A stretch of 32,000 nucleotides of DNA from NCBI GenBank assembly GCA_001430755.1, contig CP013062.1:270001-302000 (forward strand), read 5' to 3'. Origin of the DNA: Candidatus Peribacter riflensis. Its GTDB lineage: Bacteria; Patescibacteriota; Gracilibacteria; Peribacterales; Peribacteraceae. A program made the position numbers and the translations under genes. Below are positions 12,796 to 30,240 of the stretch, piece by piece; the first letter of the stretch is position 1, and each line of letters opens with the position of its first letter. The notes under the pieces are model-generated. The model worked only from the letters and a program-made list of their open reading frames with translations, was not told where the DNA came from and made no database searches.

Positions 12796-12827
12796 AAAAA
12801 GAGCGGGTACTGCTACCCGCCTTTTTG
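12794..12827. terminator. Bidirectional intrinsic terminator between convergent genes
   Basis: AAAAAAA (12794-12800), then GCGGGTA (12803-12809), CTGC, TACCCGC (12814-12820), then CTTTTT. A U tract is available on both strands. Confidence 0.65.
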
Positions 12828-27487: not shown

Positions 27488-28840
27488 TTAGTCGTCCGTC
27501 GCTCCCGCAAACTGATCCCTCAAGGTGTACGTATCCAAATTCTTTTCGCCGAGGAGCTTGATCACATGATCCACGATGCCGTCGAAGGGGACCTCCTGCT
27601 GCTGACCTTTCTTCATGTCACGGAGGATGATCGTAGAGCGTTTCACTTCCATCTTGCCGAGCAGGAGCGCGAACGTGGCCTCAAACTTATCTGCCAGGCG
27701 CATCTGGCTCTTGAGGCTCGCTTCGCCCAGCGCGCCGACGGTGTGCACACCCTTCTCGCGGAGTGCCGAGATGAGCAACAGACAATTCTTCTTGGCTTCG
27801 GGCCCCAGCTGTGCGACGAAGACATCCACCTGGTCCTTGTGCGGGGCCTGCACGCCGGCCTCCTTCATGTGCCAGATGGTCCGCTCCATCCCGCCGGCGA
27901 ACCCGACACCCGGCGTCGGCTTGCCGCCGAGGAGCTCGATCAGGCCGTCGAAACGGCCGCCGCCCCCCACCGCGTTCTGTGCGCCGGTGGATTGATCCCA
28001 GAACTCGAAGACGGTCTGCGTGTAGTAATCCAGACCGCGCACGAGGTGGATATTCGGGACGTACGAGATCCCCAGTGCATCCAGGTACTCCAGCAGGGTT
28101 GCGTGGTACTGCTTGCTCTCGTCACTGAGAAACTGTTCGAGGGTGGGCGCGCCCTTCAGCAGAACCTGGGTATCCTCCTCTTTGGAATCCAGCAGCCGGA
28201 GGGGATTGGTGTCGAGCCGGGCGCGATCGAGCTCGGGGAGGTTCCTCTCTTTGCCGATGAAGAAATCTTTCAGCGCCTGCACGTACGCGGCGCGGTTTTC
28301 GGCTGTGCCGATGTTGTTGATCTGGAGCGTGAGCCGCTCGAGGATCTTCAAGTCTGCGAAAATCTTGGTGATGACGTGGATCAGCTGCGCATCGAGGCTG
28401 GGATCTTTGAGGCCGATCACCTCCAGATCGAACTGGTGGAACTGGCGGAAGCGGCCTTTCTGGGGGCGATCGTGCCGGAAACAGGGGCCGATGGCGAAGA
28501 GCTCCACGGGCTGGGGCAACTGCTGCATGCCGTGCTCAATGTATCCGCGGCAGATGCCGGCGGTGAACTCCGGGCGCAGGGCGAACTCACTCGTCTTCTC
28601 CTCGCCCTCATCCCTGCGTTTGCCGCTTACCGTGAAGAGCTCTTTCTCCACGATGTCGGTGTGTTCGCCGATGCCGCGCTCAAAGATGCGCCGGTCCTCG
28701 AAGATGGGAGGGTCGATGCGTCTATAGCCTGCCTGGCGGCAGCGGTGACGCACAGCCTTCTTGATGTAGGTCATGTAACGCTGTTCCTCGGGGAGGATGT
28801 CGTGCGTGCCTTTTGGAGTGCGGAATTGTGGTTCTGCCAT
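27488..28840 (-). CDS. hisS: Histidine--tRNA ligase
   Basis: The translation contains PKGTHDILPEEQRYMTYI, FAIGPCFRHDRPQKGRFRQFHQFDLEVIG and GGGGRFDGLIELLGG...GFAGGMER, the class IIa HisRS motifs. Confidence 0.93.
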   Translation of the reverse strand: MAEPQFRTPKGTHDILPEEQRYMTYIKKAVRHRCRQAGYRRIDPPIFEDRRIFERGIGEHTDIVEKELFTVSGKRRDEGEEKTSEFALRPEFTAGICRGYIEHGMQQLPQPVELFAIGPCFRHDRPQKGRFRQFHQFDLEVIGLKDPSLDAQLIHVITKIFADLKILERLTLQINNIGTAENRAAYVQALKDFFIGKERNLPELDRARLDTNPLRLLDSKEEDTQVLLKGAPTLEQFLSDESKQYHATLLEYLDALGISYVPNIHLVRGLDYYTQTVFEFWDQSTGAQNAVGGGGRFDGLIELLGGKPTPGVGFAGGMERTIWHMKEAGVQAPHKDQVDVFVAQLGPEAKKNCLLLISALREKGVHTVGALGEASLKSQMRLADKFEATFALLLGKMEVKRSTIILRDMKKGQQQEVPFDGIVDHVIKLLGEKNLDTYTLRDQFAGATDD

Positions 28841-28917
28841 AACGTTAGGGAATCTTAGCAGTGCGGTACGGGCTTGAGAAGGCTTTGAAGACGGAGGGGG
28901 GGTAGACAGCCGTTCTG

Positions 28918-28952
28918 CCCGTAGCGGAGGTTCTAAGAACTTCCGCTACGGG
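28918..28952. repeat. 16-bp hairpin with 3-nt loop between the 71-codon ORF and hisS
   Basis: CCCGTAGCGGAGGTTC TAA GAACTTCCGCTACGGG, with one mismatch. No U tract follows on the minus strand. Confidence 0.65.
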
Positions 28953-28971
28953 TGGCCGGACTGTAAGAGCC

Positions 28972-29187
28972 TTATTCCTGCGTGTCCTGCGCCTCTGACT
29001 TGGTTTGCTGAAGGACGACGCCGTCGCAAGCGCGCCGGACTTCGCCGGTCGTATGGTTTACGACGACGCGTGCATGGCGCGCAGCCTCGGCCTGCTCGGC
29101 CAGCTGTTCGGGCGTGCGCCTGCCTTCGACCTGATTGACGAGGACAGTCGTACCGTCCGGGGCGGTATGGGGGAGGAGAACGACCAT
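28972..29187 (-). CDS. Possible small protein (71 aa), unknown function
   Basis: The ORF is on the same strand as hisS, directly downstream of a terminator and leader. No motif was recognised. In DNA of this GC content an ORF of this size can arise by chance. Confidence 0.35.
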   Translation of the reverse strand: MVVLLPHTAPDGTTVLVNQVEGRRTPEQLAEQAEAARHARVVVNHTTGEVRRACDGVVLQQTKSEAQDTQE

Positions 29188-29208
29188 GGGATAAAGGGGG
29201 AAAGAATA

Positions 29209-29238
29209 GAAAGAAAAAACCCTCGCGGGTGGCGAGGG
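29209..29238 (-). terminator. Intrinsic terminator (minus strand) inside a 5' leader
   Basis: Minus strand: CCCTCGC (29238-29232) CACCC GCGAGGG (29226-29220) followed by TTTTTTCTTTC. It lies 22 nt upstream of the ATG at 29187. Confidence 0.6.
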
Positions 29239-29262
29239 CTTATTCGCAAGTTGGGAAGATCT

Positions 29263-29310
29263 CTACGCCAACCTACGCCCTCGCAGCGGGTGCATCATCA
29301 TGTGCATCAT
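29263..29310 (-). CDS. Candidate leader peptide uORF MMHMMMHPLRGRRLA
   Basis: The uORF reads ATG ATG CAC ATG ATG ATG CAC CCG CTG CGA GGG CGT AGG TTG GCG TAG. It is built on a duplicated ATGATGCAC unit and contains a second copy of the terminator 3' arm, GCGAGGG (29284-29278). Confidence 0.4.
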   Translation of the reverse strand: MMHMMMHPLRGRRLA

Positions 29311-29343
29311 GCCGAAGGCGGAAGACCGCAAATTCACGGGGCA

Positions 29344-29371
29344 AGTGTAAGACGAATTTGTCTTGTGTCAA
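29344..29371 (-). promoter_or_regulatory. Possible promoter TTGACA-N16-TACACT (minus strand)
   Basis: TTGACA lies at 29371-29366 and TACACT at 29349-29344. It would start a transcript ~25 nt upstream of the uORF. Confidence 0.4.
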
Positions 29372-29487
29372 CGAGATTCCGGGGTCGGGATGCTTTTCCA
29401 TTCCCTCATGCAAGGCCAAGAGAAACACCCATACTCAGTGTGATTGAGGTGGGGAAATGTTATGCTTGCCATCCTCACCCCACTCGT

Positions 29488-30240
29488 ATGCATCCATTCG
29501 CCACCATGGGCTCCGTGCTGATCGTCGGATCTGTGCTGATGAGTGGTTGTGCGCAGAAACCGGACTTTCCTGAACCTGCAGTCATCATCGATCATCCGCT
29601 TGTTCTGCAGCGCTCTTCTTCGTCTCAGGCATTTTCTTCGAGATCATCGGTTCCCACATCCCCTTCATCGTCGCAACCGGCAAGCCTGCTCATCAAGGTG
29701 CCATTCGCACCACAGTCACCCTTTGCCGTCTGGGATCAGCTCCACGAGGAAGCATGTGAAGAGATGTCGCTCATCATGGTGCATCACTTCCTTGCGGGTA
29801 CACCGCTCAGCATGATCGATGCGGAAGCGGAGATACAGCAAATGGTGGCCTGGGAAAGGGCGCATGGCTACGCCGACGATGTGAGCGTTGCTCAATTGGG
29901 GGCAATCGCAGAGAGCCTCTACGGATATCATTTCCGTGAGCTTTCTGATGTGACGGCCGAGAGTCTCAAAAGCGAACTTGTCGCGGGGAATCCCATTATC
30001 ATTCCGGCCTTTGGTCGCGCGCTCAAAAACCCTTTCTTTAGCGGCGAAGGTCCTTTCTATCACATGCTGGTCGTCGTCGGATACGCAGGAGACGGCTTCA
30101 TTACCAACGACCCCGGCACAAAACGGGGGGAGAAATACTGGTATCAGACGGAGGTACTCATGAACGCTCTGCATGACTGGATCGGCGTCAAAGAACTGAT
30201 CGCCACCGGCCCGAAGAATGCGCTCGTCATCGAACTGTGA
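29488..30240 (+). CDS. Lipoprotein with peptidase C39-like (Peptidase_C39_2-type) domain
   Basis: The signal and lipobox-like segment is MGSVLIVGSVLMSGC, followed by a Ser-rich linker. The domain reads PFAPQSPFAVWDQLHEEACEEMSLIMV ... YHMLVVVGYAGDGFITNDPG, with the Cys...His arrangement seen in C39-like/BtrH-type domains. The start is 29488 or 29506. Confidence 0.7.
   Translation: MHPFATMGSVLIVGSVLMSGCAQKPDFPEPAVIIDHPLVLQRSSSSQAFSSRSSVPTSPSSSQPASLLIKVPFAPQSPFAVWDQLHEEACEEMSLIMVHHFLAGTPLSMIDAEAEIQQMVAWERAHGYADDVSVAQLGAIAESLYGYHFRELSDVTAESLKSELVAGNPIIIPAFGRALKNPFFSGEGPFYHMLVVVGYAGDGFITNDPGTKRGEKYWYQTEVLMNALHDWIGVKELIATGPKNALVIEL

Follow-up and report, generated by a model that had tools for sequence, protein, structure and literature searches.

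Is the short segment between a strong promoter and a small gene upstream of hisS a regulatory switch, and, if so, what would it sense and which gene would it control? The question is raised by a leader of about 125 nucleotides (nt) on the minus strand of a 32,000-nt stretch of DNA from the groundwater bacterium Candidatus Peribacter riflensis (contig CP013062.1, positions 270,001 to 302,000; hereafter the window, in whose numbering positions are given). Gene regulation in the bacterial group to which this organism belongs (Patescibacteria, also called the Candidate Phyla Radiation or CPR) is almost unexplored because the organisms are uncultured and very few of their regulators are recognizable. 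An original prediction, made from the letters of the window, had read the leader as a ribosome-dependent attenuator with a Met/His leader peptide, placed before a small open reading frame (ORF) and hisS. Here, the leader is compared with its homologs and with known attenuators. On balance, we consider it probable, if far from assured, that the leader is a ribosome-mediated (leader-peptide) transcription attenuator working on a leaderless mRNA, in which the short ORF would begin at the very 5′ end of the RNA.

Architecture of the leader

The features of the leader and of hisS all lie on the minus strand. What had been listed for this region (a promoter, an ATG-initiated ORF, a duplicated unit, a hairpin with a tail, and further on a 71-codon ORF, a strong hairpin, and hisS) is present in the sequence. 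The elements of the leader are as follows.

29366–29371, minus: −35 hexamer TTGACA, perfect, with a 16-nt spacer, found in all homologs having upstream sequence
29344–29349, minus: −10 hexamer TACACT, of the form TAnnnT across homologs (TACACT, TAGACT, TATGCT)
29263–29337, minus: predicted leaderless short ORF of 24 codons, from GTG (29337–29335) to the stop TAG (29265–29263), peptide (M)NLRSSAFGMMHMMMHPLRGRRLA
29310 (ATG) to 29265–29263 (TAG), minus: inner ATG ORF, peptide MMHMMMHPLRGRRLA
29313–29319, minus: segment A, GCCUUCG (GCCTTCG in DNA), codons 7–9, 5′ arm of hairpin P1 (anti-antiterminator)
29290–29310, minus: Met/His run ATG ATG CAC ATG ATG ATG CAC, codons 10–16
29277–29284, minus: segment B, GCGAGGGC, codons 18–21, partner of A (in P1) or of the terminator 5′ arm (in the antiterminator)
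29246–29276, minus: hairpin P2, GUAGGUUGG / CCAACUUGC, with the ORF stop codon at its apex
29241–29217, minus: terminator hairpin AAGCCCTCGC/GCGAGGGTTT, followed by TTTTTTCTTTC
29232–29239, minus: terminator 5′ arm T5, GCCCUCGC
29220–29226, minus: terminator 3′ arm T3, GCGAGGG
29209–29219, minus: U-rich tract TTTTTTCTTTC
29188–29208, minus: conserved C/U-rich spacer UAUUCUUUCCCCCUUUAUCCC, which reaches the next start codon

The promoter TTGACA-16-TACACT agrees with the consensus at 10 of 12 positions and is the top promoter-like site that a promoter scan returned between 27 and 32 kb. The unit ATGATGCAC occurs at 29310–29302 and again at 29298–29290, and these are its only two copies in the window (0.34 expected). 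Segment B has its exact complement, GCCCTCGC, at 29239–29232, and B and this complement are the only two occurrences of the 8-mer on both strands of the window. The claim that the 5′ arm of the terminator has two mutually exclusive partners is thereby borne out. The competing pairing had, however, been described incompletely: B, T5, and T3 stand, but a fourth segment, A, whose GCCTTCG complements CGAGGGC in the ORF, had been missed. With A included, the leader offers three alternative helices in a 1:2 / 2:3 / 3:4 arrangement, namely A:B (P1), B:T5 (the antiterminator, stacked on P2), and T5:T3 (the terminator). In sequence, A resembles T5 and B resembles T3. The stop codon of the ORF lies 12 nt beyond B, and the distance from the hairpin tail to the next ATG is 21 nt rather than the 22 nt given earlier. 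The folding z score of the whole leader RNA is −3.25.

Elsewhere in the window, the hairpin GCGGGTACTGCTACCCGC (12802–12821) is flanked by T runs on both strands and is likely a bidirectional intrinsic terminator, which indicates that canonical terminators are in use in this genome.

Conservation of the leader as a unit

The hisS flanks of 80 Peribacteria genomes were scanned, and the leader was found in eight close relatives. An exact-pattern scan of metagenomes gave nine further loci (six new distinct sequences) and one chance match (L089), and two further variants, L091 and L092, were picked up with the covariance model R1 among five Logan loci, on contigs with homologs of the small ORF. 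The leader is known in all as 17 distinct sequences, all from Ca. Peribacter (Peregrinibacteria, CPR), and the short ORF and the duplicated GCGAGGG are kept in these relatives, as the original prediction required. The alignments of pairing and frame comprise 15 sequences, to which L091 and L092 were added separately. When R1 was run over 88 sources (732 kb), it recovered only the 15 known copies. The leader is restricted to one genus-level clade, within which hisS is at least 85% identical. What is read directly from these sequences and their comparison comprises the parts of the leader and their conservation, the maintained reading frame, the potential for pairing, and the closeness of the energies described below.

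Mean identity is 83.5% in the leader core and 53.8% at the four-fold degenerate sites of the adjacent hisS, and the core is the more conserved of the two in all 45 genome pairs. This excess indicates selection on the leader, which by the same comparison is a real, selected element. Beyond the promoter, on its upstream side, 13 unrelated contexts occur among 16 loci. All homologs carry the terminator, with a G+C-rich stem of 7–10 bp and a T-rich tract. The comparison supports the view that the leader, its short ORF, the exclusive pairings, and the terminator are conserved as a unit before a promoterless gene, with the anatomy of a trp/his-type attenuator.

Start and coding constraint of the short ORF

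The short ORF had been proposed to consist of 16 codons starting at ATG 29310. The ATG frame stands, but the true start is likely further upstream. The sequence GTGA is invariant in the 17 homologs and lies 6–7 nt past the −10 hexamer, where transcription is expected to start. Every homolog has this GTG in the frame of the ATG run, and the frame that it opens is free of stops in 17/17. In the 15 aligned sequences frame 0 contains no stop, while frames 1 and 2 hold 1–5 stops each. The distance from GTG to B is 53, 56 (L091), 59, 77, or 101 nt, values that all differ by multiples of three, and the insertions and deletions (indels) within the ORF are solely of +3, +6, +24, and +48 nt. In contrast, the loops of P2 (12–16 nt) and of the terminator (7–9 nt) vary freely by 1–4 nt. 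Had translation started at the ATG, nothing would have constrained most of the ORF indels, which are located upstream of it. The stop codon can be TAG, TAA, or TGA and always occupies a single position. Taken together, the ORF most likely starts at the predicted transcription start, GTG 29337, and comprises 24 codons.

A leaderless start is plausible in this organism. Ca. P. riflensis has been counted among the "SD-scarce" organisms, which lack the CCUCC anti-Shine-Dalgarno sequence (PMC10783764). In 730 kb of Peribacteria DNA, the distance from the extended −10 motif TGnTAnnnT to the start of long ORFs peaks at 6–7 nt. Within the window, a gene for a receiver-domain protein (16795–16372, minus strand; 128 amino acids (aa); PF00072, E = 7.5e-24) has its ATG 8 nt past the TATAAT of the promoter TTCACA-17-TATAAT and would be leaderless or nearly so. 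Judged by such spacings, leaderless genes appear to be normal in this group.

The constraint on the peptide differs along its length. The first nine codons vary freely and accept insertions of 8 and 16 codons of repeat-like DNA (TCGERSRT, PFDFAQGR). The Met/His run is usually MMHMMMH, with the variants MMMSMMMH, MMHMMMMH, and MHRMMH, and its final ATG ATG CAC is invariant in all homologs. Synonymous changes include CAC to CAT (L001, L092) and CTG to TTG. In the 3′ part, L-R-G-R-R/E-L-A, none of the 15 aligned homologs has a synonymous change in segment B, L091 and L092 carry it without change, and the Arg/Glu exchanges (AGG to GAG or the reverse) keep both pairs of P2 (A-U/G-U). The middle of the ORF keeps its codon identity, the 3′ end its RNA structure, and the 5′ end no more than an open frame; as far as the alignment tells, this pattern is that expected of a sensory leader peptide and not of a functional small protein.

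Two side observations concern this ORF. A 24-nt repeat-like sequence, ACCTGTGGTGAGCGAAGCCGAACC, is inserted in frame between A and the Met/His run in L004 (3424–3447), L006, L081, L087, and L088; L083 has a further 24 nt, CCCTTCGACTTCGCTCAGGGCAGG, in nested position, and in L003 there is a diverged copy in tandem. A motif related to ACCTGTGGTGAGCGAAGCCGAACC also occurs in a hairpin near hisS in L011. The insert is probably a small dispersed repeat of these genomes. The second observation comes from a more distant member of the Peribacteria, in which a promoter and a leaderless short ORF (MTRYSLNNAHRRHALQR) are followed by a hairpin and a T run (L036:3032–3185). This element stands directly before a gene for a 261-aa protein, 0.8 kb upstream of hisS, and may be an unrelated attenuator of the same design.

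Alternative pairings and their energies

The fraction of pairable cells in the 15 aligned homologs is 96% for P1, 98.5% for P2, 95% for the terminator, and 96% for the antiterminator B:T5; it falls to 35–49% when the partners are slid by 1–3 columns. One position of P1 is split 7:7 between C-G and U-G, and in L091 segment A has a different sequence (CUCCUCGCC) yet pairs with B.

The combination of P1, P2, and the terminator is the minimum free energy (MFE) fold in nine of the 15 homologs, and the MFE folds of the other six include the terminator as well. Stability falls by 0.4–10 kcal/mol in the antiterminator state. In a nascent RNA that ends at T5, before T3 has been made, B pairs with T5 in 11/15 homologs. 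With a ribosome footprint masked in the window sequence, the antiterminator becomes the MFE structure when the A site is at codons 11–14; from codon 15 onward the ribosome covers B and the terminator returns.

Proposed mechanism

From these observations we infer the start of transcription, the translation of the ORF, ribosome stalling, the polarity of the switch, the amino acid sensed, and any effect on hisS. The strong promoter would start the RNA at the G of GTG 29337, which would at once be the start codon of the 24-codon ORF. If no ribosome engaged, A:B (P1) and T5:T3 would form and the RNA would end at about 125 nt. A ribosome that reached the stop codon would cover the 3′ half of B and the 5′ arm of P2, T5:T3 would again form, and transcription would terminate. 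If charged tRNA-Met or tRNA-His were scarce, a ribosome stalled in the Met/His run, with its A site at about codons 10–14, would part A from B and leave B free. The freed B would capture T5 (8 bp, stacked on P2) before T3 existed, and the polymerase would pass into the 71-aa ORF and possibly into hisS.

The original prediction had the His codons sensing histidine on behalf of hisS. Five of the seven codons in the run are Met, however, one His is replaced in L011, and the last His codon is so placed that a ribosome stalled there would mask B, while the first His may count. The pairing geometry works for stalls at codons 10–14 and not at the last His codon, and in this model it favours the Met codons plus the first His as the sensed codons.

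Ca. Peribacter lacks most amino acid biosynthesis (PMC4736985), which makes the sensing of tRNA charge a sensible strategy. A wider scenario can be built on this, although we offer it tentatively and hold it to be rather doubtful as a whole: an auxotrophic CPR symbiont that does not use Shine-Dalgarno sequences would sense scavenged Met and His, the two scarcest, through stalling on a leaderless mRNA, and the terminator switch would raise the level of an orphan protein and, by read-through, of hisS.

The 71-aa ORF and hisS

Four features follow the leader on the same strand.

28972–29187, minus: 71-aa ORF, PeribacterA2_0287, hypothetical protein, the first gene past the terminator
28918–28952, minus: 15-bp hairpin without a U tract (z = −4.6), between the 71-aa ORF and hisS
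28852–28880, minus: promoter-like site of hisS, TTCTCA-17-TAAGAT, with TGC before TAAGAT, 11 nt before the ATG (8/12 matches, below the threshold of the scan)
27488–28840, minus: hisS, histidyl-tRNA synthetase, 450 aa

The 71-aa ORF is 100% identical to PeribacterA2_0287 of Candidatus Peribacter riflensis. Its product matches no Pfam family, and its AlphaFold2 model (predicted local distance difference test score 71) has no fold match. It forms a tiny orphan family; both small-ORF families have at most five members. The promoter scan found no promoter-like site between the terminator and this ORF, which makes the ORF dependent on read-through, and on this evidence the gene directly controlled by the putative attenuator is the 71-aa orphan ORF. 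The trp/his-type logic of the original prediction is therefore retained for the anatomy, which is conserved as a unit, while the immediate target is this ORF and the link to hisS is circumstantial. No Met-related gene was seen at the locus. The spacer UAUUCUUUCCCCCUUUAUCCC is better conserved than the protein sequence of the 71-aa ORF; it is pyrimidine-rich and contains no Shine-Dalgarno sequence, and stretches rich in C/U are likewise seen before other start codons of these genomes.

The product of hisS is 93% identical to its counterparts in Peribacter metagenome-assembled genomes. The order leader, ORF, hisS on one strand is the same in 17/17 loci while the flank upstream of the promoter varies, which fits a leader that belongs to a block including hisS. 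Control of hisS is possible as an additional inducible input. At the position of the 28918–28952 hairpin, relatives carry three unrelated hairpin sequences, and L005 keeps a hairpin without the ORF; the hairpin may act as a terminator lacking the U tract, stabilize the RNA, or represent a repeat resembling repetitive extragenic palindromic (REP) sequences. In L002 (1280–2360), the small ORF is cut to 19 codons and is followed by a 315-aa ORF without a Pfam family, which has a similar C/U-rich spacer before it and extends to the hisS promoter with no hairpin between. The idea that this 315-aa gene encodes a DUF62/S-adenosylmethionine (SAM) hydrolase was dropped for want of Pfam support.

Of 40 Peribacteria loci scanned, 27 have a tRNA-His (GUG) gene upstream of hisS at a distance of 0.1–3.7 kb, in most cases in the same orientation. 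The scan took in eight loci with the leader besides the tRNA-free window, and of these L007 alone has tRNA-His within 4 kb.

At least 12 related loci contain a segment of 80–100 nt directly before hisS that is absent from the window (L001:3899–4000, L004, L006, L008, L019, L021, L023, L026, L031, L042, L045, L069, L083, L084, and L086). Its opening repeats the first nine codons of hisS (M[AS]EP[QL]FRTP), after which IPLRS... leads to a stop. The segment also contains a hairpin with compensatory changes (GCUCC/GGAGC, GCCCC/GGGGC, GCUCUGGC/GCCAGAGC, and GCUCCGC/GCGGAGC), which is flanked by AUCCCCC...GGNGGGAU, and a −10-like box, TGGTAnCnT, precedes the true hisS start. A mobile insertion is one candidate identity for this segment, an upstream ORF and RNA element specific to hisS another.

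Comparison with known attenuators

The classical trpL, hisL, pheL, leuL, thrL, and pheST attenuators of Proteobacteria and Actinobacteria share several traits with the Peribacter leader. Regulatory codons form a run within a short ORF; four segments pair as 1:2, 2:3, and 3:4; the regulated gene is directly preceded by an intrinsic terminator; and the stop codon is set so that a terminating ribosome covers segment 2. The classical attenuators differ from the Peribacter leader in that the Peribacter ORF is predicted to begin at the 5′ end of the RNA, with neither a leader nor a Shine-Dalgarno sequence, that its run mixes Met and His, that the first regulated gene is an orphan 71-aa ORF, and that the host belongs to the CPR. 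The literature searched contained no described Met-codon attenuator and nothing on attenuation in Patescibacteria. Rfam gave no match at gathering score anywhere in the window, and a scan of 28800–29500 at E ≤ 10 returned only chance-level matches. Among the leader families, His_leader, Phe_leader, Leu_leader, Trp_leader, and Thr_leader all stayed below their gathering scores; the best matches, Phe_leader (19.7 bits, gathering 55) and Leu_leader (17.2 bits, gathering 50), had E of about 1 and covered the terminator hairpin only.

A leaderless sensory ORF is known from the polycysteine short ORFs of mycobacteria, where a leaderless 5′ AUG or GUG first cistron carries a run of codons for a scarce amino acid and the stalled ribosome remodels the RNA (Canestrari et al., 10.1101/834739). 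The Peribacter ORF, with its start predicted from sequence, would share this organization. Unlike the mycobacterial elements, which work by occlusion of the ribosome-binding site and use Cys codons, it has Met/His codons and an intrinsic terminator with an antiterminator, a canonical pair that points to transcriptional control. Folding of the Peribacter leader gave no pairing that hides the next start codon; the terminator is followed by the unstructured C/U-rich spacer.

The original prediction named no leader-peptide attenuator for hisS itself, only T-box control in Firmicutes. In bacilli, a His leader peptide has in fact been predicted upstream of the hisS paralogs hisS* and hisZ, T-box elements serve hisS in Firmicutes, and the type of attenuator changes between lineages (Naville & Gautheret 2010, PMC2965389). 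In both the bacillus and the Peribacter leaders, a short ORF containing His codons and a premature terminator precede a gene of the hisS family. The bacillus leader uses only His codons and stands directly before the hisS paralog, whereas the Peribacter leader has two His among five Met codons and is separated from hisS by an ORF, a hairpin, and a promoter-like site. A T-box gave no match at E ≤ 10, and the Peribacter RNA is only about 125 nt long. A metabolite riboswitch was likewise not indicated: there is no Rfam match and no compact conserved aptamer core, and the loops are variable.

Alternative explanations and points against attenuation

Met/His-rich motifs are typical metal ligands, and the short ORF might encode a functional 24-aa protein, for example a metal-binding one. 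The locus would then be a two-gene operon in which a leaky terminator sets the ratio of this protein to the 71-aa protein and the pairings have no regulatory role. The conservation of the ORF and of MMHMMMH as amino acids, the synonymous His and Leu changes, and the use of three different stop codons would suit such a protein. The peptide, however, tolerates in-frame repeat-derived insertions of 8 and 16 residues, its sequence is free to change in the N-terminal and C-terminal parts (Arg to Glu and the reverse, and Arg to Pro or Ser, among other changes), and its 3′ half is conserved as RNA and not as protein. The four-segment arrangement, in which A resembles T5, B resembles T3, and the 8-mer occurs nowhere else in 32 kb, would be left unexplained, and nothing resembling the leader peptide was found in a predicted-protein collection of 5.8 billion sequences. 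We consider a functional small protein unlikely, though not far-fetched. The strong consensus promoter, the three hairpins, the canonical terminator, and the low folding z score (−3.25) would also be in keeping with a free-standing small RNA of about 125 nt, acting in trans or with a dual function, past which the downstream ORF is transcribed by incidental read-through; attenuator-derived RNAs can act in trans (PMC6614838). Such an RNA seems improbable, as preservation of a reading frame and its stop codon is not expected of a noncoding RNA, no other promoter is present for the 71-aa ORF, and conservation extends to the 21-nt spacer; there is also no Rfam match, and no candidate target was identified.

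Competition between terminator and antiterminator is equally compatible with an effector other than the ribosome, be it a riboswitch ligand, a T-box-like contact with tRNA, or a TRAP- or HutP-like protein that binds the AUG repeats, with the ORF being incidental. The repeated AUGAUGCAC could serve as a protein-binding repeat, and the locus has a histidine theme, with a tRNA-His gene near hisS in 27/40 relatives. Against this stand the failure of any Rfam riboswitch or T-box to match even at E ≤ 10, the insertions of 24–48 nt in the P1 loop and the variation of the P2 loop, which leave no compact aptamer core, and the conservation of the frame, which argues for translation. The idea that the leader is a degenerate copy or mimic of tRNA-His was rejected because 65 of 500 shuffles align as well. 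An effector of this kind is, in our judgement, very improbable. There is similarly little to recommend a leader with no regulatory function, whose repeats arose by local duplication of the terminator hairpin and whose conservation reflects recent common ancestry. The resemblance of A to T5 and of B to T3 is what duplication would give, the homologs form one genus-level clade, and covariation is absent; but the leader outconserves neighbouring neutral sites in 45/45 genome pairs, repeated replacement has left 13 contexts upstream of the promoter in 16 loci, and the indels follow the coding frame.

The ribosome-mediated attenuator has to be set against a number of observations that weigh against it. 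No base pair shows a double-sided change in the 15 sequences, in the terminator and antiterminator structures alike, and shuffle controls were not exceeded for either structure. In this shallow clade the homologs are too similar for covariation to prove the helices, which, as far as the alignment goes, are based on conservation, wobble-compatible changes, and the variant L091. For an RNA starting at GTG, P1 of the window lies 2.2 kcal/mol above the MFE. Equilibrium folding with a masked ribosome keeps the terminator as MFE at most positions in most homologs, and the antiterminator wins under such masks in only the window, L002, L007, L008, and L081. The terminator is thus in the MFE fold of 15/15 homologs, and masked equilibrium gives no clean switch in most of them, so that a switch could only be kinetic, like that of the classical attenuators. 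The gap between the last His codon and B, earlier estimated at about 6 nt, is fixed at 5 nt in 15/15 sequences, so that a ribosome stalled at this codon would mask B and should favour termination, whereby the productive stall sites would be the Met codons and the first His.

Other points concern the genes. Nothing known connects the 71-aa ORF, the first to follow the leader, with Met or His. The strong 15-bp hairpin separates this ORF from hisS, and the TTCTCA-17-TAnnnT site 11 nt before the hisS ATG is conserved in genomes with and without the leader. By the R1 and hisS-flank scans, L005, whose hisS is 90% identical, and all more distant Peribacteria lack the leader; L005 has a tRNA-His gene (L005:1096–1172) at the position that the leader and the small ORF occupy in the window.

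Implications for Patescibacteria

A leader-peptide switch of this kind appears to be previously undescribed in this bacterial group. If the attenuator reading is true, it would be the first attenuator in Patescibacteria and the first based on Met codons, and it suggests that Met, besides His, can be a sensed amino acid. It would mean that an economical, protein-free mode of control operates in CPR/Patescibacteria, that attenuation can be built on a leaderless mRNA without Shine-Dalgarno recognition, and that transcription and translation are physically coupled in these organisms from the first transcribed nucleotide. The 71-aa orphan protein is flagged as a candidate for control under starvation. 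As the 125-nt element is easily synthesized, it may serve as a test bed for transcription–translation coupling and amino acid sensing in a reduced symbiont.

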